Origin: Candidatus Woesearchaeota archaeon
Lineage (GTDB): Archaea > Nanobdellota > Nanobdellia > Woesearchaeales > ARS49
NCBI GenBank assembly: GCA_019323575.1
Contig: JAHWHB010000048.1
Location: 1 to 48,618, forward strand
Length of the DNA stretch: 48,618 bases
Reading direction: 5' to 3'
The position numbers were made by a program, and so were the translations under genes. The notes beneath the pieces are model-generated. The model did no database searches, was not told the origin of the DNA, and saw nothing but the letters and a program-made list of their open reading frames with translations. Positions 1-48,618 of the stretch are shown one piece after another. Each line of letters starts with the position of its first letter. Position 1 is the first letter of the stretch.

Positions 1-148
1 GGGAGTCACGCATCATCCTCCTCATGCAAGGTCCGTTTCTGTGATGGAGCCATCCATTACTGAATCTCAGATTTCTCCGAGTCGCCTTTTAATGGTGGGC
101 AGACTTTCCTCAGTTTCCCGGGAACCCCGTACCTACCCAACCCTGAGA
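1..148 (-). ncRNA. rnpB: RNase P RNA, 5' portion (continues beyond the left edge of the window)
   Basis: The minus-strand read contains the universal CR-I/P4 signature GAGGAAAGUCUGCCCACC (complement of 94-111), preceded by a GC-rich P3-like hairpin. Further 3' is CACAGAAACGGACC (CR-III-like ACAGAAA, complement of 30-43). The stretch is GC-rich and ORF-free, unlike its flanks. A TTTATAAA box lies about 25 nt upstream of the inferred 5' end. Confidence 0.65.
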
Positions 149-165
149 ATAAGCAGTTTTGAGGG

Positions 166-173
166 TTTATAAA
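166..173 (-). promoter_or_regulatory. TATA box (TTTATAAA) for the RNase P RNA gene
   Basis: Matches the archaeal TATA consensus and lies about 20-25 nt upstream (minus orientation) of the start of the GC-rich RNA. Confidence 0.5.
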
Positions 174-177
174 GCTT

Positions 178-226
178 TTGAAATGTGAAAGCACATTTCA
201 AAGCCCAGCTGAAGCCTAGCTTCAGC
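178..226. repeat. Two adjacent perfect inverted repeats (hairpins) between the methyltransferase-like gene and the RNase P promoter
   Basis: ttgaaatgtg (178-187) pairs with cacatttcaa (192-201) across a 4-nt loop. gctgaagc (208-215) pairs with gcttcagc (219-226) across a 3-nt loop. The second hairpin contains the stop codon at 222-224. No oligo-U tract follows. Confidence 0.5.
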
Positions 227-1316
227 ATGCTTTCGAGAATAAAATTATAGTCAACTCTTCAGCGCCCTGCATGACTTTGCGCTCAGAAACAACAGAGAAC
301 TTGAATTCTTGCGCTTTCTGTTTGACTAGGTCAACACCGCGCTTCATGACAAGACATATTTTGCCTGTTTTTTTGAGAATGAACTCTGCCTGGTAGAACA
401 ATTCGTGATAAACCTTCTCGATCTTATTAGGAGAAACACTCCTGCCAAGCTGAGGAGGCAACGTGATAATGAAATCAAGGAAGTTCTTGCCAAACTTGGC
501 ATCAAGCCACTTCAAATCAGTCCTGCTAAAATTAACAGACTTAACAACACCAGCAATCTTAGCATTCTTACGAGAAGCAGAAACATGCTTGAAATTATCA
601 TCCATAGCAATAATCGTGCCCTTGAAATCAGTCTCTTTGTCAACAAGTTCGTATTTTAATTTAGGAACAAAACCAAACTTTTCCTTGCAAAACTTATGCG
701 GAGAAGTATTAGTAGCAAACAAAGCAGCCTCAATCGGAATAATACCATGACGACAGAAAGGGTCAAGCAAAGAATTCTTAGATTCATAACCAGCAATGCG
801 CAGCAAAGCAGCAGCAATATTACCCTTCAAAGCATCAGTGCCAAGGAAAATACGATAATCCCTGCGGCCAAGATCAACACCAGAAAAATCAACACCAAAA
901 AAAACGTCAGAATTCTCAATAAGCAGGAAAAAAACAGTCTGAGGCCGCTTATGATCAACAACCACATTATAAATCTCAGAAAGCTTAGAATTAAGCAACT
1001 GCATAACATCAAAAGAGGTAAAATCATGACTGCCAAAACGCTCACACCTGACAACAGCAGTTTTATCAATCAAATTATCAAGATTTTTCAGAACAGACTC
1101 ATCAGGAACGCCAGAAAGTTTGAAAGTTGATAAAAGAAGAACAACCTTTGAAAAAGTACGGCCATGATAACACAAATCAACCAAATCCTGCTCAGACCTG
1201 CAAGAAAAAAATATTTTTCCAGGAGCAGTTTTAACGTTTGTTGCTGATATTAACTGCTTAATCTCAGAAGCACTAACATCCTCCAAGCCAACGTGAGTCA
1301 AAACAAGACCATTCAT
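222..1316 (-). CDS. THUMP-domain RNA methyltransferase-like protein (Trm14/UPF0020-type) with degenerate SAM and catalytic motifs
   Basis: 364 aa. THUMP-like N-terminal half, then RRDYRIF...[14 protein letters not shown]...[16 protein letters not shown] and IITLPPQLG. These occupy the places of the family motifs DPxCGSGT and (N/D)PPY. The start overlaps the gyrA stop by 4 nt. Confidence 0.7.
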
Positions 1317-3751
1317 TCTTCAGGAGCAATCTTAGCAAGACTAATAACTTTATCATTCTCCTCAAGCTTCATAACACGAACGCCCTGAGTGTTACGTCCA
1401 ATAACACTAATGCCCTTCACAGGAGTACGAATAAGAATACCAGACTGAGAAATAAGCATAAGCTCATCCTCTTCAGTAACAGAGGCAATGCCAACAACAC
1501 AGCCATTCTTATCAGTAATCTTAATGTTAATAACACCAACGCCACCGCGACTAATCAACCTGTAATCAGAAATCAAAGTACGCTTGCCAAAACCCTTCTC
1601 GGTAACAGTAACCAAAGTAAGCTTGTCATCAGCAATAGTGGCACCCACAACAGAATCATCACGCAAACGAATACCAATCACGCCAGCAGCAGTCCTGCCC
1701 ATAGCACGAACATCACCCTCATTAAACTTAACAGCCATACCATTCTTAGAAGCGATAATAATCTGCTGATTGCCGTCAGTCAACATAACAGACTTAAGCT
1801 CATCATTCTCAGCCAAATTAATAGCAATAATACCGCCCTTTCTAGGATTGCTGAACTCAGCAAGAGAGGTCTTCTTAACAGTACCATCACCAGTAACCAT
1901 AAACAAGAACTTATTCTCCTCAAACTGCTTAACAGGAATGAAAGCAGTAACTTTTTCTTTGTCGCCAAGCTGCAACAGATTAACAATAGCAGTGCCTTTT
2001 GCATAACGACCTGCTTCTGGAATCTGGTAAACCTTAATCCAGTGCACCTTTCCAAGATTCGTAAAGAACAAAATGTAATCATGAGTGTTAGCAACAAACA
2101 AATTCTCAACAAAATCTTCTTCCTTAGCCTCGGCAGCAATAATACCCTTGCCGCCACGACGCTGCTGCTTGTAAGTATCAACAGGCAAACGCTTAACGTA
2201 ACCAGCATGAGTAATAGTAATAACATCATCCTCAGGCTTAATCAAAGCCTCCTCCTCAATAACCTCAGCCTCAGCCGCCAAAACCTGAGAGCGGCGATCA
2301 TCACCATACTTCTCCTTAAGCTCAAGAAGCTCAGCCTTGATAATACCCAAAATCTTCTGCTCAGAAGCAAGAATATCCTTCAAGTCCTTAATCAACTTCA
2401 ACAAGTCAGCATGCTCAGAACGAATCTTGCCCTGCTCCAAACCAGTCAAGCGGCGCAAAGTCATATCAAGAATAGCCTGAGCCTGCTTATCAGACAACTT
2501 GTAATCAGCAATCAAAGCAGCTTTAGCCTCATCAGCAGACTTAGACTGCTTGATAAGCTGAACAACAGCATCAATATGGTCAAGAGCAATAATCAAACCC
2601 TCAAGCAAATGCGCCTTGTCCTCAGCCTGCCTCAAATCAAACTCAGTACGCTTGCGAACAACAGAGCGGCGATAATCAATAAAGTTCTGGATAATGTCCT
2701 TCAAAGAAAGCAGTTTAGGCTGGTTATCAACAAGAGCAAGCAGGTTAATACCAAAAGTCTCCTGCAACCTGCTATGAGCAAACAACTGGTTAAGAACAAC
2801 ATCAGAATTTGCTCCTGATTTCAAATCAATAACAATACGCATACCTTCCCTGTCAGACTCATCACGCAAATCAGAAATGCCCTGAACCTTCTTATCACGA
2901 ACAAGATTAGCAATAGCCAAGATAAGCTCGGCCTTGTTAACCATGTAAGGAATCTCAGAAACAATAATCCTAGTCCTGTTCTTTGCCTCCTCAATACTAG
3001 TTTTGGCACGAACAACAATCTTGCCACGACCAGTCTTGTAAGCCTGCTTAAGACCAGAAACACCCATGATGATGCCGCCAGTAGGAAAATCAGGAGCCCT
3101 AACAGTCTGCATCAAATCCAAAACATCAATCTCGGGATTATCAATCGTCTGAATAATACCATCACAAACCTCAGTCATGTTGTGAGGAGGAATATTAGTA
3201 GCCATACCAACAGCAATGCCAGAACTGCCATTAATCAACAGATTAGGAACCTTAGAAGGAAGTACAGAAGGCTCCTCCAAAGAACCATCAAAATTAGGGA
3301 CAAAATCAACAGTCTCCTTTTCAATGTCCTGCAAAATTTCCTCAGACAGCTTGTTCAATCTAGCCTCAGTATAACGCATCGCTGCAGCATTATCACCATC
3401 AATACTGCCGAAATTACCCTGACCCTGAATCAAAGGATAACGCATTGAGAAATCCTGAGCAAGACGAACCATAGCATCATAAACAGCCATATCACCATGA
3501 GGGTGATACTTACCAAGCACTTCACCAACAATCCTTGCAGACTTCTTGAAAGGCTTATTATGCAACATACCCATATCATACATCGCATAAAGAACACGCC
3601 TGTGAACAGGCTTTAAGCCGTCGCGAACATCAGGCAGAGCCCTGCCAACAATAACAGACATAGAATAATCTAAGTAAGAAGCCTTCATCTCCTGCTCGAT
3701 AACACGAGGGATAATCTTCTCTACTTTAGGTGCTTGTTTTTCGTCTTCCAT
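1313..3751 (-). CDS. gyrA: DNA gyrase subunit A
   Basis: 812 aa. Contains [25 protein letters not shown] and the active-site region [11 protein letters not shown], plus C-terminal beta-pinwheel repeats. Confidence 0.95.
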
Positions 3752-3791
3752 AAAGAAACGTTTCTCGACGATAAAACATAAGATTATAGGG

Positions 3792-3799
3792 TTTATAAA
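3792..3799 (-). promoter_or_regulatory. TATA box upstream of gyrA
   Basis: TTTATAAA about 40 nt upstream of the gyrA ATG (3751). The half-site TCGACGATA (3766-3774) lies between the TATA box and the ATG. Confidence 0.5.
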
Positions 3800-3826
3800 A
3801 GTGATTATTTTCTATATAGAAAAATA

Positions 3827-3973
3827 CTATGGATTTTGCTTTAAAACGGCTGTTTTAATCTTGAAATTTCTGCCACAATAGACACAAAGCTTAGAACGGT
3901 CCGCAAGCAAGACATTCCTAGTCTCATACAACATCTGATTACCACAATGACGGCACTTCAACAAGAACTTCAT
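3827..3973 (-). CDS. Small zinc-ribbon protein (48 aa), below the cutoff of the ORF track
   Basis: My own translation is MKFLLKCRHCGNQMLYETRNVLLADRSKLCVYCGRNFKIKTAVLKQNP (CxxC-x19-CxxC). The ATG (3973-3971) overlaps the scpB TGA (3972-3970) as ATGA, which suggests translational coupling. Confidence 0.6.
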   Translation of the reverse strand: MKFLLKCRHCGNQMLYETRNVLLADRSKLCVYCGRNFKIKTAVLKQNP

Positions 3974-5163
3974 TCCTCTTTCTCACCAGACAACAATTTC
4001 TTAATCTTATCCTCAATCTTAGCCTCAACCTCAGGAGGAACCCCCTCAGGAAACAAACCCTTGCCAGCAAACTCCTTAGGCTTCATAGCCGCAGTCTTCT
4101 CAGCAGCCTCCTTAGCAATCTTCTGCTCATAAGACAACTCTTCAGGCTCTGCAGGCGTTTCTTTGACTTCTGTCTCTACGGGCTTTTCTTCTTCAGGAGC
4201 TTCAGGCTCTTTTTCTGCTTTCTTCTTACCCCTCTTTTTCTTCTTAGGCTTTTCTTCAGCTGGCTTCTCTTCTTCAACTTCAGGCTTTTCTTCAGGTTTT
4301 TCTTCAACTTCCAGCTCTTCAGGCTTTTCTTCTTCAGGAGCTTCAGATTCTGCAGGCTCTTCAGGTTTCTCTTCAGGCTTTTCTTTTTTCTCGTGCTTCT
4401 TCTTATGCTTCACATGCTTTTTGTGAACCTTCTTCTCACCTTCAACATCATAAACCTCAAGATTGCCAAAATTCTCCATAAAAAGCTCAACACCAGTAGG
4501 CAGCATCTCCTTAACAGGCTCAAGAGCAGGATAAGTCTCAAGAGGCTCCTTAGAACTGCCCAAGACAATCTGGGGCTTTTCCAAACGCTCCTCAGTCTGC
4601 CTTCTCTGCTCAACCTCAATACTCTCTATCTCAACCTCCTTAGCCTCAATAGCCTTCTCAATCTCAACAGCACTGCCAAACTTGTTCTTAAGCTTAGAAG
4701 GATCAATATCAAAATACTCAAAAAACTTAGGAGTAAGCTTAATCAACTTAGTCCTGCCAGACTTCTCACGCGTAATAAAACCAGACTCCTCCAAAAGAGA
4801 AAGATGCTCATACGCCTTATTAGTACGAATCTTGATAACCTTAGACTGCAAAACAGGAGCCTTATACGCAACAACAGCCAAAGTCTCAAGCTGACCCTTA
4901 GGAAGCTCAGTCTTAGTAACAACCTTCTTGATAACAGGAACATACTTCTCACGAACAGTCAACTTCCACGCAGAACCATCCTGAACAAGCATAGTAGGAC
5001 TATTAGCAGAATCAAGCAAAGCCTTCCACTCAGACAGAGCAGCAAGAACCTCCTCCTCAGAACGCTTACACAAACCAGCAAGCTCTGAGAGCTCAAGCTT
5101 TCTGCCTGCAGCAAACAAAATGGCCTCAACAGTACGCTTCAGTTCCTCATCCATTTGCGACAA
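3970..5163 (-). CDS. scpB: ScpB-like segregation/condensation protein with a long acidic-lysine low-complexity tail
   Basis: 397 aa. The N-terminal ~160 aa match the ScpB double winged-helix pattern (VEAILFAAGRKLELSELA..., QLETLAVVAYKAPVLQSKVIKIRTNKAYEHLSLLEESGFI). The C-terminal ~190 aa are KPEE/EEKP-rich. Confidence 0.8.
   Translation of the reverse strand: MSQMDEELKRTVEAILFAAGRKLELSELAGLCKRSEEEVLAALSEWKALLDSANSPTMLVQDGSAWKLTVREKYVPVIKKVVTKTELPKGQLETLAVVAYKAPVLQSKVIKIRTNKAYEHLSLLEESGFITREKSGRTKLIKLTPKFFEYFDIDPSKLKNKFGSAVEIEKAIEAKEVEIESIEVEQRRQTEERLEKPQIVLGSSKEPLETYPALEPVKEMLPTGVELFMENFGNLEVYDVEGEKKVHKKHVKHKKKHEKKEKPEEKPEEPAESEAPEEEKPEELEVEEKPEEKPEVEEEKPAEEKPKKKKRGKKKAEKEPEAPEEEKPVETEVKETPAEPEELSYEQKIAKEAAEKTAAMKPKEFAGKGLFPEGVPPEVEAKIEDKIKKLLSGEKEE
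4181..4346. repeat. Exact 25-nt direct repeat inside the scpB low-complexity tail
   Basis: ggcttttcttcttcaggagcttcag occurs at 4181-4205 and again at 4322-4346. Both copies encode APEEEKP on the minus strand. Confidence 0.8.
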
Positions 5164-8820: not shown

Positions 8821-8866
8821 CTCCAGTATAGTAAAATATATAAACAACTGATATTAAAAAATAATA

Positions 8867-9628
8867 ATGGGGGGAGAAAAAATGAGGCTTGTACTAGCAG
8901 ATCCAACATTAATAAAAGACAGCATATCAGTAATATCAGAACTAGTCAATGAAGCAAGATTCAAAATCACACGCGACGGGCTAGAAATGATAGCAATGGA
9001 CCCGGCAAACGTCGCAATGGTCATCTTCAAACTATTATCAAGCAGCTTCACAGAATACGAAGTGGAAAAGGAACAAGAAATAGCAATAAACCTGGCAAAC
9101 TTCAAACAAATACTAAGAAGAGTAGGAGCAAGCGACATACTAACACTAGAAGTAACAGGAGAAAACAAACTACAAATACTCCTAAAAGGAGGCACAACAA
9201 GAACATTCTCACTACCACTAATAGAACTCGAAGAAAAAGAACAAAGAATACCAAACCTAACATTCCCAATAACAATAGGAACAAACAGCATGGTGCTCAA
9301 CGACGCAATAGCAGACGCAGACATAGTAGCAGAAAGCGTCACCTTTGCAGCAGAACCAGAAAAACTAACAATATCAGCAGAGGGAGACCTAAGCAAAGCA
9401 CACATAGAAATCAAACAGGGAGAAGACACAAAAATCAAAAGCACCAGTACTGCAAAAATCAAAGCAAAATACTCAATAGAGTATTTGAAAAAAATGATAA
9501 ATGCAGGCAAGCTCGCAGACGAAGTAAACATATTCTTTAACCAAGACTACCCGCTAAAGCTGGAATACAAAGTAGTAGACAAACTACTACTAAGCTTCAT
9601 CCTAGCACCAAGAGTAGAGAACGATTAA
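8867..9628 (+). CDS. pcn: PCNA sliding clamp
   Basis: 253 aa. Typical PCNA length and pattern (RLVLADPTLIKDSISVISELVNEARFKITRDGLEMIAMDPANVAMV). The TATA box atatataaa (8836-8844) lies 27 nt upstream. An alternative start at M6 (8882) is possible. Confidence 0.9.
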   Translation: MGGEKMRLVLADPTLIKDSISVISELVNEARFKITRDGLEMIAMDPANVAMVIFKLLSSSFTEYEVEKEQEIAINLANFKQILRRVGASDILTLEVTGENKLQILLKGGTTRTFSLPLIELEEKEQRIPNLTFPITIGTNSMVLNDAIADADIVAESVTFAAEPEKLTISAEGDLSKAHIEIKQGEDTKIKSTSTAKIKAKYSIEYLKKMINAGKLADEVNIFFNQDYPLKLEYKVVDKLLLSFILAPRVEND

Positions 9629-9668
9629 GCCAAAAAGCTTATAAAGGAAGTTACCACTTCACAGTGGT

Positions 9669-10511: not shown

Positions 10512-10512
10512 A

Positions 10513-11930: not shown

Positions 11931-12066
11931 ATCACAACACCTCTTTAAGCACTCACAAGTGTAAACAAAAACAGAGAAAGCGAATATATAAATGTTACTA
12001 TTTAGTATACTGGTATTTTTAACAAAGTGTATAAATTTTTATGCAATAAAACATTACCAAGCAAAA

Positions 12067-40999: not shown

Positions 41000-41410
41000 T
41001 CAAAACAAACGCTTATTCTCCAAAAAATTCTTTAACGGCAAAAACAAAGGCGAAGGAATCTCATCCTTCGAGAACCAGCCAAAATCAGACGTCTTATCCG
41101 CCTCACAAATCTTAGCCTCACCACCAGCATACTCCGCCTCAACAAAAATAGTAATGTAATGCGTGCCGTCTTCAGGACACACATCATTAGTCGCACCAAC
41201 AACACGAGAATTCTTAATATCAACATTGACCTCCTCCTTAGCCTCACGAGCAGCAGTCTCCTCAGGAGACTCGCCAAACTCAAGATGACCGCCAGGAAGA
41301 CTCCACGTATGAGCACCATGCGCGCCAATCCTTCTTTGCAACAAAATCTTACCACCCTTCTTAACAAAAACACCAACACCAACTCCAGGCCTTTTCATCA
41401 TCCAAACCAC
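41000..41410 (-). CDS. Nudix hydrolase
   Basis: 136 aa. Nudix box GGHLEFGESPEETAAREAKEEVNV. The start overlaps the DP2 3' end by 13 nt. Confidence 0.85.
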   Translation of the reverse strand: MVWMMKRPGVGVGVFVKKGGKILLQRRIGAHGAHTWSLPGGHLEFGESPEETAAREAKEEVNVDIKNSRVVGATNDVCPEDGTHYITIFVEAEYAGGEAKICEADKTSDFGWFSKDEIPSPLFLPLKNFLENKRLF

Positions 41411-44400
41411 TCCCCCAAGCCAACCTGCTTATCAGGCTCCTTTCCAAAAACACTCTCCAAACGAACACGCAACAACTCAATAGTCTGATTCAAATAAGGA
41501 GAAACATTATACTTCTTGGCAAGAGAAATCATAGGGCCAATATACTTAGAAACAAAACCCTCGCTCACGGTAAAAATAATCTTGCCATTGCACTTGGTGC
41601 ATTTGCCAACAAGAGGAGGACGACGGAACTTTGTATTGCAGGAAACACAGCGGAACTCCTGCATAGAAAACTTCCTCAAATTACCCTTAGCATCCTTAAT
41701 AAAATGCTTCTCAATAACCAAACGAGCGACATCAGAAGCATCAACACTCCTCAACTTCTCAGCAAGGTCCATCTGGCCCCTAAGCTTCTCCTCCATAGAA
41801 GGAAGAGTCTTATACGCACTACAACGAACAGTATGATTGATATTAGAAACATCATGAGTAAACAACATACCCTCGTACTGCTCAGGAGTATTCAAACGAG
41901 GCTTAATCTGAGCGACCTTAACATCCCAAGGCATCTTATACTCAAGACTCGCTTTGTATAATTCCAAAGGATACCTAGAAACAACATCAATATCAAAAGC
42001 CATATCGTCAACCTCTGCAGGAGTCAAAATACTAGTCAAAACAAGAGGAGTATCCATCGTAGAACCGCGAGAAGAAGGCAGGTACTTCTTGCTAAAATTC
42101 AAAAAAGCATCCATCAACAAAACAACACAAGCCTCATCACCATCACAATCCCTTCTAGTAGCGGCGTGCAACAAAGGATGAGCAAACAAGCCCTGAGTCT
42201 TACTAAAACCAATAATCCTGCCAACAATACCCGCGCTGGTATGCGGGGCAAGAACAACAACAAGATTGCCAATCAAATCAGGAGCAGAAGAGATATTATA
42301 GAAACGAGGAAGACCATACAACAACTCCAGCTCATCATCAACAAAGCGAGAAACATTCATAAGAACGGAATCAGCACCATCATCAGGACTCTCAGTACAA
42401 CTCGGCAAAATAATATCCTGAGGCTTAAGCTCAACAACCTGATTAACATCAACAAGAGCCCCGCCATAAATATCCTTCTCATAACCCAACTCCTTCAAAA
42501 CATCAACACCAACATTAATCTCAACAGGCTTAAAATGAGTAATAGGAAGCTGAGTCATATCATAACGAGTGGTGCCGTCCTTGTAAACATGAACATCATA
42601 ACGAGCACGCAACACTCCTTTAGCAAGATGCTCAGGAATATGCTCAGAATTACTAGTGCCACGAACACCCTTAATCAACTCAGGATACTGAGCAACACCA
42701 AGCTGCTTGACAACAGCATCAAAATAGTGCTTAATAGGAATAGAACGGGCAGAACAAGCATCAGCAGGACCATGACGAGAGCACTCAGCAGAATCCTGCA
42801 AACCACAAACAGCACACTTCCACTTCTGAACAGTAGAAGAACCACAAACCTCGCAAGAATTCAAAACAGTCTCAGCATTACACTTCTCACAGTAAAAGAA
42901 CGGAAAATCGGCAAAAACCTTACCGGCCTGCAACGTGCTCTGGAAACTCCTCAAACGCCCGCCTTCCTCCCCAACAGGAAACAAAACATGAGGGCTGCCA
43001 GTAAGCTCGCGCTGCTTAGCCTTCTCAGGACGGCCCATCCTGGCACCAATAAAAGTGCCACACTTATCCCTAACAGCAAAAGGAGAAAACTCATTGATAA
43101 CGTCCAAAACCTTCTTACCCTCAGAAATGTGCTTCTTTAAATCACTAGGCTTCCCCTCCAACAAATCAAACATGGCAGAAACAACAACAGCAAAATCACG
43201 CTCGACAACCACATACTCATTATTAACAAGAATGTGAGGCAAACCAATAAGCTCCAAATAACGCTTAGCATTATCAAGAGGAAGAACAATCTTATCAACG
43301 CCCTTCTCAGAAGCATGAACCTTAGCATGATCAAACCAATTCAAAAGCTCAGAAAAATCAACCAAAGACAACAAATTCCAATAAAAAGTATAAGCAGGAT
43401 GAACAGGGGTCTTAGTAGAAAGAGCAATAGACACAGCTTCCTTACCAGAAGGAATCTTTCTCAAAGGATTCTTCAAAAACTCAGAAAAACGAGAATCAGA
43501 AACCTCCTGAGCCCACCACTCAGGACAATAACCAGCAGGAGCAAGAGTGTGCGCGCGATTAAAAAAGTCACCATATGAAACCAATACATCACCCAAAAAC
43601 AAGATTTCCTTAATAAAAGGCTGAACCCGCTTTGCATCATCCAAAGAATTAACCTGAACAACAGAACCATCAGCCAACTTTACAATAGGACCATCAATAA
43701 AATCGCAAGCAGTCATACTGGCAGCCTTGCCCGGCCTCTCAGTCTTTAACTGAGTGCCGGTAGCAATATACTGATTCAAAATAAACATGGTGGCAGGATG
43801 AATAGCCTGAGCACTAAAACCACTGGTGCGACAACGACCATACCTCAAACGAAAACCACCAGGAGACAAAGGATAACCAAGAACAGGCCTGCCGGCAACC
43901 AAATCAGAAATATAAGTATAATCAGGAGAAATCTTGTGCTGAGAAGCAACCTTCTCTTTTCCTGCTTTAGCAGTCTTCTGAATTTTCAAGAAATCCTCCA
44001 AAAACTTCCAGGAATCCAATTTGAAATCCTTACCCCAAACACCAAGCTGCTTCCAAAGCTTAGGAGCCTTCAAAGGAATACAAGAAGAAAGAACCAGACA
44101 AAAACCAGACCTGATAAAATTAGTAGGAACACGCGGCAGGTCCTTATAATTGCTAACCTCAATACGCTCACTGGGATCCCCATTAACCTCTACAGGCAAA
44201 TGCTTCAACAAAAACGAAAGCTCAGCCTCGCTCGGATAATACTGCAAATTAGTAACACGCTCATGATAATCCTGAAGCTCAGTAGAAGCACGCTTAATCT
44301 CATCAGGCTGGGCATCATAAACACCAAAACCAAGACACTGCCTCACATAATCAGCAATAATCACACTAACAGCAGCAGCCGTGCCACCAGCATTCCTGAT

Positions 44401-44859
44401 AGGACCTGCAAAATTCACACAAACGTACTCACCACCATCCATCCGCTTCTTAACCTCAACATTAACAATACCGTCCAAAGGAGAGCTGACAACACCCACA
44501 GTAACATAAGCGAAACCAGTACGAACACCAACCTCCATAGCCTGCTGCCTGCTGGAAAACTTGCAAAACCTCTCCAAAGCAACCTCCTCAGCAATCTTCA
44601 AAGCAACACGCCAGTCAAGAGAGCCAAACTCCTTCTCCAACTCCATAATCCGCTCGACAACACCAGAGCCAACGATCTGAGGGGCAACAACAGAAATCAA
44701 GCCAACAACACGCTGAGCCATATTATCAGCAAGAGAAACCTCAACAGAAGAAACAGGATCAAAACCCTTGGCACGAGCCTTAGAAGCGGCAGAGTGCAAC
44801 CTAGCAACCTCAGACTTCAAACCATCAAAATACTTGTTCATCAAAGGGGACGCAATCAT
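41398..44859 (-). CDS. dp2: DNA polymerase D large subunit (DP2), with a canonical C-terminal PIP box
   Basis: 1153 aa. Full-length match to the DP2 architecture, including Cys clusters (CEKCNAETVLNSCEVCG, CAVCG, CVSCNTKF...CTKCNG). The C-terminus is KQVGLGEWFG, i.e. QxxLxxWF (41404-41427). Confidence 0.95.
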   Translation of the reverse strand: MIASPLMNKYFDGLKSEVARLHSAASKARAKGFDPVSSVEVSLADNMAQRVVGLISVVAPQIVGSGVVERIMELEKEFGSLDWRVALKIAEEVALERFCKFSSRQQAMEVGVRTGFAYVTVGVVSSPLDGIVNVEVKKRMDGGEYVCVNFAGPIRNAGGTAAAVSVIIADYVRQCLGFGVYDAQPDEIKRASTELQDYHERVTNLQYYPSEAELSFLLKHLPVEVNGDPSERIEVSNYKDLPRVPTNFIRSGFCLVLSSCIPLKAPKLWKQLGVWGKDFKLDSWKFLEDFLKIQKTAKAGKEKVASQHKISPDYTYISDLVAGRPVLGYPLSPGGFRLRYGRCRTSGFSAQAIHPATMFILNQYIATGTQLKTERPGKAASMTACDFIDGPIVKLADGSVVQVNSLDDAKRVQPFIKEILFLGDVLVSYGDFFNRAHTLAPAGYCPEWWAQEVSDSRFSEFLKNPLRKIPSGKEAVSIALSTKTPVHPAYTFYWNLLSLVDFSELLNWFDHAKVHASEKGVDKIVLPLDNAKRYLELIGLPHILVNNEYVVVERDFAVVVSAMFDLLEGKPSDLKKHISEGKKVLDVINEFSPFAVRDKCGTFIGARMGRPEKAKQRELTGSPHVLFPVGEEGGRLRSFQSTLQAGKVFADFPFFYCEKCNAETVLNSCEVCGSSTVQKWKCAVCGLQDSAECSRHGPADACSARSIPIKHYFDAVVKQLGVAQYPELIKGVRGTSNSEHIPEHLAKGVLRARYDVHVYKDGTTRYDMTQLPITHFKPVEINVGVDVLKELGYEKDIYGGALVDVNQVVELKPQDIILPSCTESPDDGADSVLMNVSRFVDDELELLYGLPRFYNISSAPDLIGNLVVVLAPHTSAGIVGRIIGFSKTQGLFAHPLLHAATRRDCDGDEACVVLLMDAFLNFSKKYLPSSRGSTMDTPLVLTSILTPAEVDDMAFDIDVVSRYPLELYKASLEYKMPWDVKVAQIKPRLNTPEQYEGMLFTHDVSNINHTVRCSAYKTLPSMEEKLRGQMDLAEKLRSVDASDVARLVIEKHFIKDAKGNLRKFSMQEFRCVSCNTKFRRPPLVGKCTKCNGKIIFTVSEGFVSKYIGPMISLAKKYNVSPYLNQTIELLRVRLESVFGKEPDKQVGLGEWFG

Positions 44860-44860
44860 A

Positions 44861-46288
44861 TCAAAACCTCAACATCAAAACCTGCCTAGTATTCAGATTA
44901 ACAACAGGAACAACACCCGGCTCTGGATCGTGACCAAACTTTTCCTGATAATTAGTCCTTGACTGAAAACAACTGCCACAAACAAGAGTGGTGCCGCGAT
45001 AATGCAAAAAACCTGCCTTATGAATATGACCAGAAAAAAACAAATCAGGAATCTTATCAATAACAAGAGGATCAGAACGCGATTCAGGAATATACAAAGT
45101 ACTGGTGTGCTGAGGGGCAAGATGCCTGCGCTGCAACAAAAACCTCATAATCAAAGGGGCTCTGTCAGAAATATGCTTGCCGCTGTTCTTAATACTAGGA
45201 ACAATCTCACCATAATCATCAAAGCTGAAACCGTGATACATCAAAACATCAAAACCAGGAAAATCAGCAGAAGAATGAATATTAACAAGAGAAGGATTAC
45301 AAACAACAGTCACATTAGGAAGCTCCCAAATAGCCTTAGCATAATCCTTTGAAAGCAAAGGCTGAGGCTCACTAATCCTGCCAGCATCATGATTCCCAGC
45401 ACAGAGAATAACATTAATGGAACCAGGAATACGAGAAAACAAACGAGCACACTCATTATACTGCTCCCTAATATCAGAAATCTCCAGCTCCTTTTCCTGA
45501 TTAGGATAAATCCCAACACCATCAACAAGGTCGCCAGGAATAAAAACATACTTCAATTTAGAAGCAATAACCTTCTCCTCAGGAGCGCCATACTCCCCAT
45601 TAACCCAAGAAAGAAAATTCTCAAACTTCTCACGCTCAAAAAGAGAGGAACCCACATGAATACAGGAAAGAACAGCAGCATAAACCTCATCAGGAGAACG
45701 CTTAGCCTCGGCAATAGGAATGTCAGGAAAAACAAAAGAATTAGCAAAAACAATATTATCACCAAGAGTGCCGGAAACGCCCAACACCTCATCCATAACA
45801 ACATCAGAAGCAAGAGAGTGCAATTCGGGCCTATTTTTAGAAAACAAAACAGGAATACTGCCAGAGGCATCCTCCAAGGTCAAAAGAACGTGCTCGTTCT
45901 TAGTAATACGTTTGTCAGAAACAATGCCAATAATAGAAATAGACTCCCTGTCCTTCTTAGAACGCAAACGAGAGATAGAAGTAAGATTCTGCAGTTCCTG
46001 ACGAGACTGCAAAAACTTCTCAAGCGCGCGATACCGCGCGTTAAAATAATCAACAAAATCCTGAACAGAACGCTTCCTGGGCTTATCATCATACTCAGAA
46101 ACAACACGCACAGGCGATATCTCAGGATTTTCAAACAAGTCAGAAGGCAAAACCCCCTTAGAAAGAGAATCATGCCACTTCTCAGCAACACCAGGCAGAC
46201 TCAACTTAGAAATAATCTCGCGACTAACAAGAACATTATGCTTCAACAAAGCACCAATAACCTCCTTCTTAACAGCTAAGAGCTCCAT
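44861..46288 (-). CDS. dp1: DNA polymerase D small subunit (DP1, Mre11-like phosphoesterase exonuclease)
   Basis: 475 aa. An OB region, then the calcineurin-like motifs FIPGDLVDG, CAGNHD and FFSGHIH. Confidence 0.93.
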   Translation of the reverse strand: MELLAVKKEVIGALLKHNVLVSREIISKLSLPGVAEKWHDSLSKGVLPSDLFENPEISPVRVVSEYDDKPRKRSVQDFVDYFNARYRALEKFLQSRQELQNLTSISRLRSKKDRESISIIGIVSDKRITKNEHVLLTLEDASGSIPVLFSKNRPELHSLASDVVMDEVLGVSGTLGDNIVFANSFVFPDIPIAEAKRSPDEVYAAVLSCIHVGSSLFEREKFENFLSWVNGEYGAPEEKVIASKLKYVFIPGDLVDGVGIYPNQEKELEISDIREQYNECARLFSRIPGSINVILCAGNHDAGRISEPQPLLSKDYAKAIWELPNVTVVCNPSLVNIHSSADFPGFDVLMYHGFSFDDYGEIVPSIKNSGKHISDRAPLIMRFLLQRRHLAPQHTSTLYIPESRSDPLVIDKIPDLFFSGHIHKAGFLHYRGTTLVCGSCFQSRTNYQEKFGHDPEPGVVPVVNLNTRQVLMLRF

Positions 46289-47493
46289 ACCAAATTAAGT
46301 TCCTCAGACAAAATACCCTTAATCCTCTGGATGAGCGCATCGTTAATCCCGATGCTAATCTCGCGAGTGCGGCCATACCTTCCCTTACTGATAACCTTAG
46401 CGTTAATAATGCCAAGCATGTCAAGTTCAGCAATAATATCACTAATACGGCGCTGGGTCAAAGGACGAAGACCAACCTGACTGCAATAACGCTCGTACAA
46501 CGAGTAAATCTCTCCTGTAAAAACACCCTGCTTTTGCCCGCAAGCGTCCAAAATAGAGAACAAAGTAATCTGGTATTGTTTAGGCTGGGTAGCAACAACA
46601 TCAAGAATACGATCCCGCTCAATCTTGTCTTCAGCCAAGTCAAGATGAGCAATACAAACCTTTTTTTCATTCTGACGCTCAGCGAGCTCACCAGCAACAC
46701 GCAACAACTCCAAAGCACGACGCGCATCACCATGCTCACGAGCAGCAAAAGCAGCACACTTCTCGAGAACACCCTCCTCCAAAGTGCCAGGAAAAAAAGC
46801 AAGAAGAGCACGCTGGTGCAAAATGTTCTGAATCTGCTCAGCATTGTACGGAGGGAAAATAAGCTCCTCCTCACTCAAAGAACTCTTAACACGAGGGTCA
46901 AGAGTATCAGTAAAAACAAGATCATTAGAAATACCAACAAGAGTGATCTGGGAATTCTTAAGCTCAGAGTTAATCCTCGTCAGATTGTATAGAAGCTCGT
47001 CGCCAGACTTGCCAACAAGCTGGTCGATCTCATCAAGAATCAACAAAAGAATATGCTTATCAGCATCAAGAGTGTTAAAGAAAAGATGATAAACCTCGTC
47101 GGTAGGAAGACCAGTAGGGGGAATATTTTTACCGTACTCCCTAAGAAGCTGGGCAACAATCCTATACTCAGTATCAGCCAATTTTTTCAACTTACAATTA
47201 AGATAAATAACCTTAATCGGAAGCTGTTTTTGCTTGGAGATTTCAGTAAGCTGCTGAGTGGTATACTTAACAGTCAGAGTCTTACCCGTGCCTGTTTTAC
47301 CATAAATAAAAACATTAGACGGCTTTTCTCCTCTCAAAACAGGAGCAAGAATATTAGCAAGCTGTTGAATCTGCTCATCCCTATGAGAGATTTGAGCAGG
47401 AGAATAATTAGACTGCAAAACAACCTTATTCTTAAAAATCGGTTTTTTCTCGAGATACTTCTCAAAAAAACCCACCAACCCCTTTTCTTTCAT
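46276..47493 (-). CDS. orc1: Orc1/Cdc6 replication initiator
   Basis: 405 aa from the ATG at 47493 (MKEKGLVGFFEKYL...). Walker A GKTGTGKT, Walker B LLILDEID, and a C-terminal winged helix. The TATA box (tttatata on the minus strand, 47517-47524) lies 27 nt upstream. I reject the 85 upstream codons of the track ORF because they translate the AT-rich origin. Confidence 0.9.
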   Translation of the reverse strand: MKEKGLVGFFEKYLEKKPIFKNKVVLQSNYSPAQISHRDEQIQQLANILAPVLRGEKPSNVFIYGKTGTGKTLTVKYTTQQLTEISKQKQLPIKVIYLNCKLKKLADTEYRIVAQLLREYGKNIPPTGLPTDEVYHLFFNTLDADKHILLLILDEIDQLVGKSGDELLYNLTRINSELKNSQITLVGISNDLVFTDTLDPRVKSSLSEEELIFPPYNAEQIQNILHQRALLAFFPGTLEEGVLEKCAAFAAREHGDARRALELLRVAGELAERQNEKKVCIAHLDLAEDKIERDRILDVVATQPKQYQITLFSILDACGQKQGVFTGEIYSLYERYCSQVGLRPLTQRRISDIIAELDMLGIINAKVISKGRYGRTREISIGINDALIQRIKGILSEELNLVWSS

Positions 47494-47499
47494 GTGGAA
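47479..47499 (-). promoter_or_regulatory. ORB-like box 1 (overlaps the orc1 start codon)
   Basis: The plus strand reads CCCC-ttttc-TTTCATGTGGAA. This matches box 2 at 11 of 12 dyad positions with identical 5-nt spacing to the C/G string. Confidence 0.55.
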
Positions 47500-47516
47500 A
47501 AAGGCAAGGGAGTTAG

Positions 47517-47524
47517 TATATAAA
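47517..47524 (-). promoter_or_regulatory. TATA box of orc1/cdc6
   Basis: Reads tttatata on the minus strand, 27 nt upstream of the ATG at 47493 (leaderless). Confidence 0.5.
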
Positions 47525-47539
47525 TGTTTGTAATCACCA

Positions 47540-47561
47540 CCCCCTAACATTTCCTGTGGAA
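47540..47561 (-). promoter_or_regulatory. ORB-like box 2
   Basis: The minus strand reads TTCCACAGGAAA-tgtta-GGGGG. The dyad differs only in its two central bases from the archaeal mini-ORB core TTCCAGTGGAAA, and a G-string follows. Confidence 0.6.
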
Positions 47562-47625
47562 CCGGCAAGTGTTGTGTTGTTGTTTTTATGAGTGAAAAAG
47601 AGAAAAAAAGACGAAAAACAACACC

Positions 47626-47671
47626 TTTATAATATTTTTCTATATAAATAATAAATAATAATATAAAAAAA
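47626..47671. other. A/T-only stretch, candidate DNA unwinding element
   Basis: 45 of 46 nt are A or T (tttataatatttttctatataaataataaataataatataaaaaaa). It is bracketed by ORB boxes of opposite orientation. A 10-bp inverted repeat (47578-47587 / 47614-47623) lies just to its left. Confidence 0.5.
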
Positions 47672-47697
47672 CAAACCACAATACATACATATGGGAT

Positions 47698-47719
47698 TTG
47701 CACAAGAAGCAGAGGGGGG
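47698..47719 (+). promoter_or_regulatory. ORB-like box 3 (degenerate, inverted relative to boxes 1 and 2)
   Basis: TTGCACAAGAAG-caga-GGGGGG. It matches 9 of 12 positions of the box 2 dyad with the same spacing to the G-string. The half-palindrome CGTCGATAT follows at 47726-47734. Confidence 0.4.
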
Positions 47720-47772
47720 TATTGCCGTCGATATTTAGTTTTTGCCACTCCCTAATAGCAAAAACAGAAAGG

Positions 47773-47780
47773 TTTATATA
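47773..47780 (+). promoter_or_regulatory. TATA box of the trmB-like gene
   Basis: ggTTTATATAgggg lies about 56 nt upstream of the ATG at 47836. Confidence 0.45.
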
Positions 47781-47802
47781 GGGGTTATACCTACGCAAGA
47801 GT

Positions 47803-47824
47803 AATAACAACACATTGTGTTATT
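47803..47824. promoter_or_regulatory. Inverted repeat AATAACA-N8-TGTTATT near the predicted trmB-like transcription start
   Basis: 7-bp arms at 47803-47809 and 47818-47824, about 25-45 nt downstream of the TATA box. Candidate auto-operator. Confidence 0.3.
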
Positions 47825-47835
47825 GAGGATGAAAA

Positions 47836-48618
47836 ATGATTGTTCAAAAGGATTTTTTAAACAGGCTTAAGGATTTTGGTTTGAACAGCTACGAAGCAAA
47901 ACTGTGGACCGCACTTCTATCGAGAGGAGTGGCAACCGCAGGAGAACTTTCTGACATCGCTAACGTGCCAAGAAGCAGAAGCTACGACGTACTAGAAAGC
48001 TTAGAAAGAAAAGGATTTGTAATAATGAAACTAGGCAAGCCAATTAAATATATAGCTGTGCCTCCAGCAGAAGTCCTCGAGAGAGTCAAGAAAACAATCC
48101 AAGAAGACGCAACAAAACAAGTACAGTTACTTGATACACTAAGAAAAAGTGAAGTTCTAGGAGAACTAAACACACTCCACAAACAAGGAATAGAACTTGT
48201 AGAACCTGCAGAACTAACAGGAGCAGTAAAAGGCAGAGTAAACCTGTATAACCATCTTGCATCCTCAATAAAAAATGCAGAAAAAACAATCAATATCATA
48301 ACAACCGCACCTGGTTTGACACGCAAATCAGAGACGCTAAAAAACGCTTTCCAAAAAGCGAAAGAAAAAGGAGTGAGAATAAGAATAATATCGCCTGCAC
48401 AACCAAACCAGGCAAAAACACTAAGCTCCGTAGCACAAGTAAGGCAGACAGAAGCAATACCAGCAAGATTCTGCGTAATAGACGGAAAACAAATAACATT
48501 CATGATACTAGACGACGCAGACATACATCCAAACTACGACTTCGGAGTATGGGTTAACGCTGCAGGCTTTGCAAAAAGCTTTGACAACATATTCAACTTA
48601 ATCTGGGACAAACACTAA
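47836..48618 (+). CDS. TrmB-family transcriptional regulator
   Basis: 260 aa. N-terminal wHTH LKDFGLNSYEAKLWTALLSRGVATAGELSDIANVPRSRSYDVLESLERKGFV, a coiled-coil linker and a C-terminal effector-like domain. The stop is at the last base of the window. Confidence 0.8.
   Translation: MIVQKDFLNRLKDFGLNSYEAKLWTALLSRGVATAGELSDIANVPRSRSYDVLESLERKGFVIMKLGKPIKYIAVPPAEVLERVKKTIQEDATKQVQLLDTLRKSEVLGELNTLHKQGIELVEPAELTGAVKGRVNLYNHLASSIKNAEKTINIITTAPGLTRKSETLKNAFQKAKEKGVRIRIISPAQPNQAKTLSSVAQVRQTEAIPARFCVIDGKQITFMILDDADIHPNYDFGVWVNAAGFAKSFDNIFNLIWDKH

Follow-up and report, generated by a model that had tools for sequence, protein, structure and literature searches.

Uniform strand bias and mirror-image codon usage across a candidate replication origin in a Woesearchaeota-type archaeon

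The 48,618-nt stretch of DNA analysed here (the window) comes from a tiny, symbiotic-type DPANN archaeon of the Woesearchaeota type. One of its strands is rich in A and poor in T, whichever way the genes run. The bias belongs to the strand and not to the gene, and it behaves as mutational pressure. It also passes unreversed across what looks like a textbook archaeal origin, which hints at an unusual, possibly one-directional copying of the chromosome. Most probably, the bias arises from strand-specific mutation linked to replication, with forks passing the origin region one way.

Base composition and codon dialects

The given strand contains 41.2 % A, 22.5 % C, 18.3 % T and 17.9 % G (20046, 10939, 8915 and 8718 bases), which corresponds to an AT skew of +0.384 and a GC skew of −0.113. 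Under a binomial model, the excess of A over T amounts to 65 SD and that of C over G to 16 SD, and A exceeds T in all 2-kb bins of the window. An earlier note on this DNA had counted the bases of four 60-nt lines by hand, and all four counts are exact. Its description of the strand as A+C-rich holds for the window as a whole. At four-fold degenerate sites, however, the asymmetry concerns only A and T: A:T is about 17:1 with G≈C, and the T-rich strand carries T.73, C.12, G.11 and A.04. At these sites, plus-strand genes have C.131 vs G.111, and minus-strand genes, complemented to the given strand, have G.124 vs C.081. Because a consistent excess of C over G is thus absent from the four-fold sites of genes in both orientations, the window-wide excess can be regarded as a secondary effect of two-fold codons avoiding T (in favour of C) and A (in favour of G).

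Skew was determined gene by gene for 41 open reading frames, almost all of them supported by Pfam. On the sense strand, pooled third positions are A.60, C.23, G.12 and T.05 in plus genes and T.55, G.28, C.11 and A.06 in minus genes. The pooled third-position AT skew (AT3) is +0.84 and −0.80, respectively; single plus genes range from +0.34 (the SUI1 gene in the ribosomal-protein operon) to +0.95, and single minus genes from −0.52 to −0.92. The strand term of the AT skew falls from 0.82 at codon position 3 to 0.19 at position 1 and 0.04 at position 2, and the coding-orientation term at position 3 is merely 0.02. The one-strand excess of A in genes of both orientations is confirmed and stronger than had been stated, and ordinary purine loading of the coding strand was rightly set aside.

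The proposal of two mirror-image dialects is borne out by codon usage (plus genes: GCA.81, GTA.66, AAA.86, GAC.85; minus genes: GCT.73, GTT.84, AAG.83, GAT.82). Plus and minus genes correlate at −0.40 when the same codons are compared and at +0.90 once the third base is complemented. The minus-strand genes for the RlmL-like methyltransferase, GyrA and ScpB have GC3 values of +0.21 to +0.80. The dialect is nearly as strong in ribosomal-protein genes as elsewhere (four-fold A.69, T.05; NNC/(NNC+NNT) =.84). The predicted surplus of spurious reading frames is also real: per 10 kb, the window has 30.6 frames of at least 100 aa, whereas relatives without skew but with the same GC content have 13.8-15.1; stop trinucleotides have a frequency of 0.046-0.047 per strand, compared with 0.062 expected under symmetric composition.

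Features of the window, with sense-strand third-position skews
Feature	Position	Strand	Remarks
Whole window	1..48618	.	A-rich/T-poor plus strand, T-rich/A-poor minus strand; polarity uniform in either gene orientation
RlmL-like methyltransferase, GyrA, ScpB	222..5163	−	T/G-ending dialect; AT3 −0.65, −0.82, −0.52
RNase J, PCNA, UbiA, TraB, Hef, fused PriS-PriL	7489..21312	+	A/C dialect; AT3 +0.67 to +0.95
TPR gene	11187-11930	−	T/G dialect, among plus genes; AT3 −0.71
HtpX gene	18065-18925	−	T/G dialect, among plus genes; AT3 −0.85
Ribosomal-protein operon, L3 to SecY	21505..34145	+	A/C-ending dialect; Pfam; AT3 mostly +0.63 to +0.95
Second full ORB, CTCCACAGGAAACGCTGGGGT	35590..35610	+	isolated, TBP-MCM spacer
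PolD DP2, PolD DP1, Orc1/Cdc6	41398..47493	−	T/G dialect; AT3 −0.92, −0.89, −0.77
Candidate oriC	47487..47720	.	adjoins cdc6; ORB–unwinding element–inverted ORB; blocks conserved
Mini-ORB over Cdc6 ATG	47487-47501	−	candidate oriC
Cdc6 TATA box	47516-47529	−	candidate oriC
Full ORB with G-string, GTTCCACAGGAAATGTTAGGGGGTGG	47537-47562	−	candidate oriC
Unwinding region, 80 % A+T	47575-47696		candidate oriC
Invariant core TATATAGAAA of unwinding region	47637-47646	−	candidate oriC
Inverted ORB-like element TTTGCACAAGAAGCAGAGGGGGGT	47697-47720	+	candidate oriC
TrmB-family regulator	47836..48618	+	cut by window end; A-rich polarity kept; AT3 +0.58, GC3 −0.33

The mutational character of the bias is seen in several ways. 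The size of the skew follows the freedom of the codon position (3 ≫ 1 > 2). Inversion of the Hjc gene between species flips its bias: sense AT3 is +0.58 to +0.67 in L007, L011 and L014, which carry the gene on the A-rich strand, and −0.27 to −0.56 in L009, L010, L012, L015 and contigs B and C, which carry it the other way round. Amino-acid composition follows synonymous skew across orthologues, with a rho of 0.83 for DP2 (n=69), 0.71-0.79 for DP1, 0.87 for RNase Z and 0.70-0.75 for FEN1. A recently inserted homing-endonuclease gene of the LAGLIDADG type has an AT3 of 0.11, compared with 0.5-0.9 in its neighbours. Substitution flux between L011 and L014 consists mainly of transitions (CT 83, AG 52, AT 10, of 181), and the four-fold composition requires C>T, A>G and R>Y biases on one strand. 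True non-coding DNA has an AT skew of only 0.14-0.19 vs 0.88 at four-fold sites, which is attributed to a putative dense promoter and terminator constraint in the roughly 0.7 kb of spacer.

The candidate origin and the extent of one polarity

The cluster of origin recognition boxes (ORBs) reported at 47.5-47.7 kb is present and has a conserved origin architecture beside cdc6. Its blocks are retained in an alignment of eight members of a clade in which synonymous sites are saturated. The genes for PolD DP2, PolD DP1 and Orc1/Cdc6 form a replication module adjoining this candidate origin, and the replisome genes near the locus include those for MCM, PolD, PCNA, fused primase, a DnaG-like Toprim protein, FEN1, RFC, Hjc and Hef. 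The ORB between the TBP and MCM genes may be a Cdc6-binding or regulatory site. In distant relatives, a core of the CTCCACAGGAAACGCTGGGGT type is found again some 11 kb downstream of Cdc6, presumably at the same position upstream of MCM.

A skew switch is absent at the TBP-MCM ORB and, in the window species and its relatives, at the candidate oriC. As the earlier note had observed, the TrmB gene, on the far side of the candidate origin from cdc6, keeps the polarity of the window. In the window species, polarity is constant over 68 kb, and within this distance no gradient of skew away from the origin was seen. In L007, no switch occurs from about −20 to +6 kb around cdc6. Contig B has 41 kb of one polarity with the origin inside; contig A (875 kb, Ga0247727_10000001) keeps its polarity at two loci across 105 kb, contig C at three across 98 kb, and contig D at two across 102 kb. 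The bias is common to related Woesearchaeota, where it is graded in strength across dozens of species. Relatives whose contigs span the origin keep this polarity for a further 20-35 kb beyond it. In 16 of 35 related lineages, the strand term is clear and agrees in sign to the left and to the right of cdc6, and no reversal of a clear term occurs there; left and right strand terms correlate at r = 0.85. Weak GC3 sign changes at cdc6 occur in three distant lineages (L047, L034, L059). The suggestion that the polarity fits forks leaving the ORB cluster is not supported by the continued polarity beyond it. In 15 of the 16 clear lineages, the sense strand of cdc6 is rich in G+T; in contig D, L046, L017, L062 and L072, it is rich in A+C instead. 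Such differing polarity relative to cdc6 is awkward if the origin itself sets the direction.

Explanations of the bias

To our knowledge, replication is the only genome-scale process that tells the two strands apart independently of transcription. We therefore infer that forks, averaged over evolution, cross the whole region, candidate origin included, in one direction. The two explanations offered earlier, unidirectional replication and an origin elsewhere, are both live. A rough probability of 0.45 is given to replication of this small chromosome that starts at the cdc6-linked origin and runs, in effect, in one direction to a terminus next to the origin. The bias itself is an exceptionally strong mutational pressure tied to the strand: on the minus strand of the window, all other bases tend to decay towards T, and the complement therefore fills with A. 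Genes merely record the strand they occupy, with four-fold sites reaching about 73 % T or A. Two-fold codons on the A-rich strand move from T to C and from G to A, with the mirror image on the other strand, and weaker shifts reach codon positions 1 and 2 and therefore protein composition. If the T/G-rich strand is a leading strand in the classical sense, forks would travel from right to left in the window, and this strand would be the lagging-strand template, exposed as single-stranded DNA; fork direction and leading/lagging assignment are both read from the skew. The exposed strand would take C→T, A→G and purine→pyrimidine changes, all ending at T, which resemble deamination and depurination or oxidation. 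Under this classical reading, the genes that the earlier note placed head-on to replication would indeed be so. However, the sequence immediately left of the window has a second ribosomal operon (S13-RpoN) in the opposite orientation, and coding bases are divided 54:46 between the strands, so fork direction cannot be read from gene orientation. We know of no mechanism by which an archaeal ORB origin fires in one direction, and the two inverted ORBs look, from their arrangement, made for bidirectional loading, which speaks against the unidirectional reading.

It is quite possible, though we favour it less, that replication is bidirectional from an origin elsewhere. A single, very long replichore would then take in the window with its flanks, and its strand-specific mutation bias would happen to be extreme. 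The cdc6 ORB cluster would then be dormant, rarely used, or concerned only with transcription of cdc6 and trmB; the promoter-like ORB upstream of MCM likewise suggests that ORBs may be regulatory sites. In agreement with this, no lineage whose skew is measurable has a switch at cdc6, and the lineage-variable polarity relative to cdc6 would fit forks passing passively. Sampling reached up to about 105 kb per genome, about 7-12 % of roughly 1 Mb in each lineage, and a switch beyond this share would mean an ordinary two-replichore genome with a different origin. Moreover, some archaea (Haloferax, Thermococcus) can do without their cdc6-linked origins. On the other hand, all ORB–unwinding element–ORB origins beside orc1/cdc6 that have been mapped experimentally in archaea are, as far as we know, active. 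The oriC architecture persists despite saturated synonymous sites, about 100 kb of sequence showed no further candidate for an origin, and cdc6 is co-oriented with the fork of the classical reading in 15/16 lineages, which agrees better with a direction linked to the origin than with a random position.

Non-canonical replication appears improbable. It would be either of a strand-displacement or rolling-circle-like kind, with one parental strand single-stranded for long as in vertebrate mitochondria or single-stranded DNA replicons, or initiated by recombination with a strong directional preference. The magnitude at four-fold sites is organelle-like and not bacterial, polarity is uniform across the origin, and T is the sink of every substitution path, as would be expected from prolonged single-strand damage. 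A strand-displacement mechanism would, however, predict a skew gradient, so its absence over 68 kb counts against it, as do the complete conventional replisome encoded nearby, lagging-strand processing included, and the depletion of A most of all on the T-rich strand, where the mitochondrial pattern has C.

Still more doubtful is a cause other than replication, such as strand-specific selection (on codon usage or mRNA properties) or a DNA-level process in coding sequence (a modification or repair system that marks one strand). Such a cause would suit the far weaker skew of spacers and the best origin candidate lacking a switch. Codon preference flips with gene orientation and with gene inversion, and thus neither translation nor mRNA-level selection explains the bias; highly expressed ribosomal genes are not spared, protein composition shifts along with the codons, and no mechanism is known to us that would distinguish one strand over >100 kb independently of replication and transcription. 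An artefact of assembly, binning or sequencing chemistry is effectively refuted: the contig is metagenome-assembled and several assemblies break at the same points near TrmB, but sequence 99.85-100 % identical was recovered from several samples by independent assemblers and projects (Logan SRR and DRR, an NCBI MAG, a JGI contig), all reading frames are intact with good Pfam matches, and the trait is graded across dozens of related species.

Comparison with known systems

In canonical archaeal origins (Pyrococcus, Sulfolobus oriC1), orc1/cdc6 stands beside inverted ORBs that flank an A+T-rich unwinding element, and in Pyrococcus the PolD genes come after orc1/cdc6. The candidate oriC resembles them in its cdc6-DP1-DP2 order, full ORB with G-string, inverted ORB, 80 % A+T spacer and mini-ORB at the cdc6 start, all conserved in the clade. 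In Pyrococcus and other Euryarchaeota, however, the skew changes sign at oriC, whereas here it is unchanged.

Vertebrate mitochondrial DNA shares the uniform polarity, a comparable four-fold magnitude and one G+T-rich strand, which arises there through damage while single-stranded. It replicates by strand displacement and shows a positional gradient, mainly transitions, and C as the most depleted base on the exposed strand. In the archaeon, it is A that is depleted most, and the composition calls for a purine→pyrimidine transversion bias as well; the skew shows no gradient within 68 kb, and the genes for a full coupled replisome are present.

In Borrelia burgdorferi and other spirochaetes, synonymous codons are set mainly by the replication strand, with leading and lagging dialects. 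G+T-rich and A+C-rich complementary strands and a shifted amino-acid composition are common to both systems. The Borrelia skew reverses at a central origin and most genes are co-oriented with replication, whereas here the skew keeps its sign at the candidate origin and genes are divided 54:46. With about 17:1 at four-fold sites, the A/T asymmetry of the window exceeds that known from Borrelia several-fold.

No earlier archaeal report of such a strand bias was found in the literature, and the nearest precedent, concerning G and C only, comes from CPR bacteria. Whole-chromosome strand polarity has been reported for the cellular genome of Ch65 (Ca. Chazhemtobacterium aquaticus), and strand disparity for CPR bacteria of the order UBA1400 (Ch65, Collierbacteria, Beckwithbacteria) (PMC7143001), singled out as the parity outlier among 17,873 genomes (PMC11514846). 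Ch65 is a bacterium with G vs C at 15 % against 30 % and A≈T (PMC7143001), whereas the archaeal window has A vs T at 41 % against 18 %, four-fold G≈C and a far stronger synonymous-site bias. The Ch65 disparity was seen in a closed genome, that of Woesearchaeota in sampled stretches of 68-105 kb. Both are ultra-small, probably symbiotic prokaryotes with genomes of about 1 Mb, a very long-range strand difference independent of gene-strand distribution, and ribosomal genes on the C-rich strand. As in UBA1400, the trait is common to related lineages in graded form. Unidirectional replication has been proposed for Ch65 as it is here, and an adjacent origin and terminus have likewise been proposed for the UBA1400 bacteria.

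Strand asymmetry and mirrored codon usage

Among sequence-based clues to the mode of chromosome replication, the difference in composition between the strands is the main one. The given strand of the window contains 41.2 % A, 22.5 % C, 17.9 % G and 18.3 % T, with an AT skew of +0.384 and a GC skew of −0.113. A exceeds T in each 2-kb bin, and the excess over the whole window amounts to 65 binomial SD. Four base counts that the earlier note had made by hand were all exact on recount. The strand bias is real, very strong and biologically meaningful, and we know of no cellular genome, described or found reported, in which it is stronger.

The skews of individual genes were determined for a set of 41 genes, nearly all of them Pfam-supported, on a gene map that was likewise derived from Pfam. 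The skew at third codon positions (AT3), read on the sense strand, ranges from +0.34 to +0.95 in plus-strand genes and from −0.52 to −0.92 in minus-strand genes, with pooled values of +0.84 and −0.80, respectively. AT skew was divided into a strand term, tied to the physical strand, and a coding term, tied to gene orientation; these are 0.82 and 0.02 at codon position 3, and 0.04 and 0.05 at position 2. The coding term is confined to position 1, where it reaches 0.34 for AT skew (strand term 0.19) and 0.28 for GC skew, and the AT strand term scales inversely with the constraint on the codon position. Synonymous-site skew therefore follows the physical strand and not gene orientation, and four-fold sites concur (plus genes: A.712, C.131, G.111, T.046; minus genes: T.754, C.124, G.081, A.041). 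The description of the strand as A+C-rich is correct for the window totals, in which A exceeds T and C exceeds G. At four-fold sites, however, G≈C, and the asymmetry is fundamentally one of A versus T, at about 17:1; C exceeds G in the window because two-fold codons can avoid T only via C and can avoid A only via G.

The two mirror-image codon dialects proposed from the raw sequence are borne out by the correlation of codon usage between orientations, which is −0.40 as it stands and +0.90 once the third base is complemented. The sense third positions of minus-strand genes (T.55, A.06) agree with the earlier view that this is not purine loading of coding strands, and they rule out Szybalski's rule, by which the sense strand is purine-rich in both orientations. 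Two opposite codon usages in one genome can mislead binning, the detection of horizontal transfer and the prediction of expression wherever these are based on codon usage.

The expected inflation of shadow ORFs is also present. In the window, ORFs of ≥100 aa number 30.6 per 10 kb, versus about 14–15 in unskewed relatives of equal GC, and certain alternative frames are nearly without stops. The bias doubles the number of long shadow ORFs, and automatic gene callers and ORF-based annotation would likely over-predict or mis-start genes in such genomes. The S3 ORF is overextended upstream, and antisense ORFs of about 260–360 aa lie opposite DP2, DP1 and GyrA. Scans of the window for tRNA genes and Rfam families gave no matches.

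The gene content has some features of its own. The primase is a PriS-PriL fusion of the kind found in Nanoarchaeum. The genes of DNA gyrase (GyrA) and topoisomerase VI (Top6A, Top6B; loci L087/L187, left of the window) lie no more than about 15 kb apart. One syntenic slot is filled by ThyX in the window species and on contig A, and by ThyA on contig C, which is a non-orthologous displacement inside one clade. On contigs B, C and D, RNase Z and Hjc flank a histone-fold gene, which is located some 3 kb away from the origin.

Mapped features (positions refer to the window unless a locus of the window species or of a relative is named)
Feature	Position	Strand	Remark
RlmL-like methyltransferase, GyrA, ScpB, TPR protein, HtpX, SpoIIM-like, NUDIX, PolD DP2, PolD DP1, Orc1/Cdc6		−	Pfam
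RNase J, PCNA, UbiA, Hef, fused PriS-PriL primase, L3-to-SecY ribosomal operon, TBP, MCM, aIF2-beta		+	Pfam
TrmB regulator, truncated at window end		+	Pfam
GyrA	1313-3751	−
Single 440-aa ORF matching both PriS and PriL families	19990-21312	+	Fused primase
S3 ORF	24494-25672		Overextended ~200 codons across L22, other frame
Isolated full ORB with G-string, CTCCACAGGAAACGCTGGGGT	35590-35610	+	TBP-MCM spacer, directly upstream of mcm
Cluster of assembly differences (34 bp)	47426-47459		Cdc6 N-terminus
Mini-ORB over Cdc6 ATG	47487-47501
Full ORB with G-string	47537-47562	−
80 % A+T stretch	47575-47696		Invariant core TATATAGAAA
Inverted ORB-like element with G-string	47697-47720	+
ThyX (Thy1 family), window species	L187 6042-7742
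ThyX (Thy1 family), contig A	L183 6028-7731
ThyA (Thymidylat_synt family), contig C	L184 6862-7734
Histone-fold gene, contigs B, C, D	L180 6790-7008, L181 6739-6957, L186 6169-6390
LAGLIDADG homing-endonuclease gene	L087 18438-19139 / L187 11857-12600		~7.9 kb left of window start

Polarity on both sides of the cdc6 origin candidate

The 342-bp spacer between Cdc6 and TrmB has the canonical layout of an archaeal oriC, with inverted ORBs around an A+T-rich unwinding element (47487–47720). These blocks are kept in eight clade members, in which the flanking genes are only ~72–80 % identical at the DNA level. The order cdc6-DP1-DP2 is the same as in the origin region of Pyrococcus. At position 47554, inside the full ORB, the window has C, which gives a better dyad (TTCC...GGAA), and six of six other assemblies have T. 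The isolated ORB in front of mcm might bind Orc1 and serve in regulation, or be the remnant of a second origin. The ORB core TCCACAGGAAA occurs again ~11 kb downstream of Cdc6 in the distant relatives L025, L055 and L059, presumably at the same position as the mcm-upstream element.

This spacer is the sole origin candidate identified, and no reversal or inflection of skew occurs at it, either in the window, where TrmB has an AT3 of +0.58, or in the relatives spanning the locus. The suggestion that the polarity emanates from the ORB cluster did not hold, as the polarity is the same on both sides. In the window species, the window and the ~20 kb to its left, which carry the S13-RpoN operon and Topo VI, ThyX, SHMT, DnaG-like and HerA-like genes, form 68 kb of one polarity. 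AT3 is 0.67–0.89 at the far end, 58–67 kb from the origin, versus 0.77–0.92 beside it. Over these 68 kb, there is no leading-strand excess of genes, highly expressed ones included; coding bases are split 54:46 between the strands, each of which carries one of the two ribosomal operons. In the closest origin-spanning relative (L007 with JGI contig L095), 21 of 21 ORFs of ≥120 aa within ~20 kb beyond the origin have AT3 values of −0.24 to −0.96 on the cdc6-sense strand. Long contigs of other relatives are uniform as well: contig B (251 kb) over 41 kb with the origin inside, contig C (229 kb) in three loci over 98 kb, and contig A (875 kb) in two loci over 105 kb. The more distant contig D (585 kb) is uniform in two loci over 102 kb, with a weaker skew and the opposite relation to cdc6 orientation. 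All sampled spans of 68–105 kb thus have a single polarity, and AT3 is somewhat lower 50–70 kb out on contigs A and C.

Contig A is syntenic with the window, so that the three markers used, Pelota, Cdc6 and Top6A, all fall within ~70 kb of the origin. Synteny places Cdc6 at about 88–92 kb on this contig (JGI Ga0247727_10000001, loci L175 and L183). It is absent among the best 120 Cdc6 homologues; divergence or disruption of the gene may be the cause, or the index may have missed it.

Species-representative genomes scanned with Cdc6 gave 80 loci, all from DPANN MAGs labelled Woesearchaeota or Nanoarchaeota, with some labelled Methanosarcinales. Raw left and right skews at cdc6 are confounded by gene orientation. 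For this reason, third positions and four-fold sites were analysed, and a weighted least-squares fit with a left strand term, a right strand term and a coding term was made for each of the 35 Cdc6-centred loci at which it was feasible. The strand term (S) exceeds 0.1 in absolute value, with like sign on both sides of cdc6, at 16 of the 35 loci; none has opposite signs, and the left and right terms are correlated at r = 0.85. Weak sign changes at cdc6, in GC3 only, are found in just three distant lineages (L047, L034 and L059). The trait is graded: the Keto3 strand term is 0.25–0.66 in the clade of the window, 0.15–0.42 in another group, in which G>C makes a genuine contribution, and about zero in many other lineages.

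Mutational character and possible modes of replication

The bias behaves like a mutational pressure on the physical strand. The orientation of Hjc differs by inversion among members of the clade, and its dialect changes accordingly: sense AT3 lies between +0.58 and +0.67 where the gene is on the A-rich strand, and between −0.27 and −0.56 where it is on the T-rich one. Ribosomal-protein genes mirror by strand nearly as fully as the others (NNC fraction 0.84 vs 0.26; four-fold sites A.69 on one strand, T.70 on the other), so translational selection barely resists the bias and is ruled out as its cause. Across orthologues, synonymous skew predicts the skew at positions 1+2 and amino-acid composition, with rho values, uncorrected for phylogeny or GC content, of 0.83 for DP2 (n=69), 0.71–0.79 for DP1, 0.87 for RNase Z and 0.70–0.75 for FEN1. 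The DP2 of the window has an I/V ratio of 0.50 and a K/R ratio of 1.4, versus 0.8–1.8 and 2.0–2.9 in relatives of opposite polarity. Such opposite pushes on the amino-acid composition of orthologues are a hazard for DPANN phylogenetics. A counter-point is the ORF-free spacer (~0.7 kb in the window), the AT skew of which is only 0.14–0.19. The low value may reflect constraint from promoters and terminators, as ORFs cover >98 % of the genome; spacer dominated by such elements is unfit as a neutral standard.

Between the S13-RpoN operon and Topo VI lies a gene for a LAGLIDADG homing endonuclease, with an AT3 of about 0.11 among neighbours at 0.5–0.9. Contigs A and C lack this gene at the corresponding position. 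It appears to have been inserted recently and to be still out of equilibrium with the strand bias, for which it could serve as a clock.

On the T-rich strand, the four-fold sites contain T.73, C.12, G.11 and A.04, so A is the most depleted base. The ratios of pyrimidine to purine (5.7:1), T to C (6.2) and G to A (2.4) require C>T, A>G and purine>pyrimidine biases on one strand, with T as the common sink, and the pyrimidine:purine ratio calls for a transversion bias. Classical cytosine deamination alone is excluded by G≈C at four-fold sites together with the purine:pyrimidine imbalance, and further paths are needed. In the only suitably close pair of relatives, L011 and L014 (93 % identical), the 181 third-position differences include 83 CT, 52 AG and 10 AT. 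They are mainly transitions; direct A↔T changes are rare and therefore do not make the imbalance. Polarised on L007, T>C and G>A changes seem to be in excess, the direction in which a T-rich outgroup pushes parsimony.

Replication is the only known process that tells the strands apart over such distances without regard to transcription. The simplest reading is therefore that forks traverse the whole region, origin included, in a single direction. The direction of the forks, the assignment of leading and lagging strands and the chemical nature of the lesions are what we infer. Replication might be effectively unidirectional, starting at the cdc6 origin and ending next to it, and we give this reading a probability of roughly 0.45. 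It would account for all 16 same-sign lineages by one property and would explain why cdc6 is co-oriented with the fork, in the classical reading, in 15 of the 16. A bolder and tentative proposal is that the polarity is uniform around the entire chromosome. Chargaff's second parity rule would then be violated ~2:1 across whole genomes of this clade (A≈41 %, T≈18 % on one strand), and the cause could be one-way replication of a chromosome with a canonical Orc1/ORB origin or a mode that leaves one strand single-stranded.

An ordinary bidirectional origin situated elsewhere, with the ORB cluster dormant or regulatory, is somewhat less likely than the unidirectional reading. Lineages of opposite polarity favour it, as does the isolated full ORB upstream of MCM, which suggests that ORBs are used in regulation; the co-orientation of cdc6 in 15 of the 16 lineages speaks more for a direction linked to the origin. 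Some non-canonical mode in which single-stranded DNA is long-lived, as in the second variant of the whole-chromosome proposal, is improbable as an explanation of its own. Non-replicative causes are less probable still, given the distances over which the strands are distinguished.

An assembly artefact can practically be dismissed, since the window proteins recur identically in independent assemblies (Logan SRR and DRR runs, NCBI GCA_019323295.1 and JGI 3300009509), the contigs of which are 99.85–100 % identical to the window in DNA. The same range of identity is found among strains of this species in over six samples, with only 19 variable sites in all, too few for a SNP spectrum to tell mutation from selection. 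Contig JAHWHL010000063.1 of the NCBI MAG shows 12 differences from the window, seven of them packed into 34 bp at the N-terminus of Cdc6. The latter contig stops exactly at the last base of the window (48618, inside TrmB), and five Logan contigs from different runs all stop at 47997, also inside TrmB; relatives assemble through. In the window species, assembly therefore seems to break systematically a short way to the right of the origin, at a repeat or a strain-variable region.

Comparison with known systems

Archaeal skews are usually weak, and here a strong one disregards a textbook origin. A full-text literature search found no archaeal precedent for such strand asymmetry. A review of metagenome-assembled genomes tested 224 archaeal RefSeq genomes and found a peaked skew pattern in just 18 (PMC7111523), and skew is nowhere mentioned in a 2026 preprint on 208 complete Nanobdellota genomes, all rotated to ORC1 (bioRxiv 10.64898/2026.05.13.725050). 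A survey of 17,873 complete genomes, 313 of them archaeal, names as the one obvious parity outlier Ch65 (Ca. Chazhemtobacterium aquaticus, a CPR bacterium of the order UBA1400), on the strength of panels that lack an A-versus-T plot (PMC11514846).

The canonical archaeal oriC shares with the window the adjacency of orc1/cdc6 and the inverted ORBs flanking an A+T-rich element, and differs in that no skew inflection is seen here. The two-replichore skew of Borrelia, of bacteria in general and of euryarchaea is similar in that synonymous skew is set by the physical strand; here, however, there is neither a reversal at the origin candidate nor a co-orientation of genes. The asymmetry of mitochondrial heavy and light strands is alike in magnitude and uniform polarity. 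In mitochondria, however, C is most depleted on the exposed strand and the pattern is transition-driven, whereas in the window species A is most depleted and a transversion bias is involved. Mitochondrial skew also forms a gradient with distance from the origin; no trend appears in the window species over 68 kb, which is a short range for such a comparison.

The closest parallel is Ch65 and its relatives, the closed genomes of which have a monotonic cumulative GC skew and for which unidirectional replication with adjacent origin and terminus has been proposed (PMC7143001). The likeness lies in the scale, in the independence from gene-strand distribution and in the occurrence in related lineages. 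The two differ in domain and in strength, in that only spans of 68–105 kb were sampled here, and in the bases concerned: the disparity there is G versus C with A≈T, and here it is A versus T with G≈C at four-fold sites. If genome-wide, the asymmetry would imply a replication mode undocumented for archaeal chromosomes and would tie DPANN to CPR, ultra-small symbionts that are unrelated to each other, by a common oddity. If the whole-chromosome reading is true, the clade would supply the first case of this kind in Archaea and an A/T counterpart, apparently of independent origin, to the G/C disparity of CPR bacteria.
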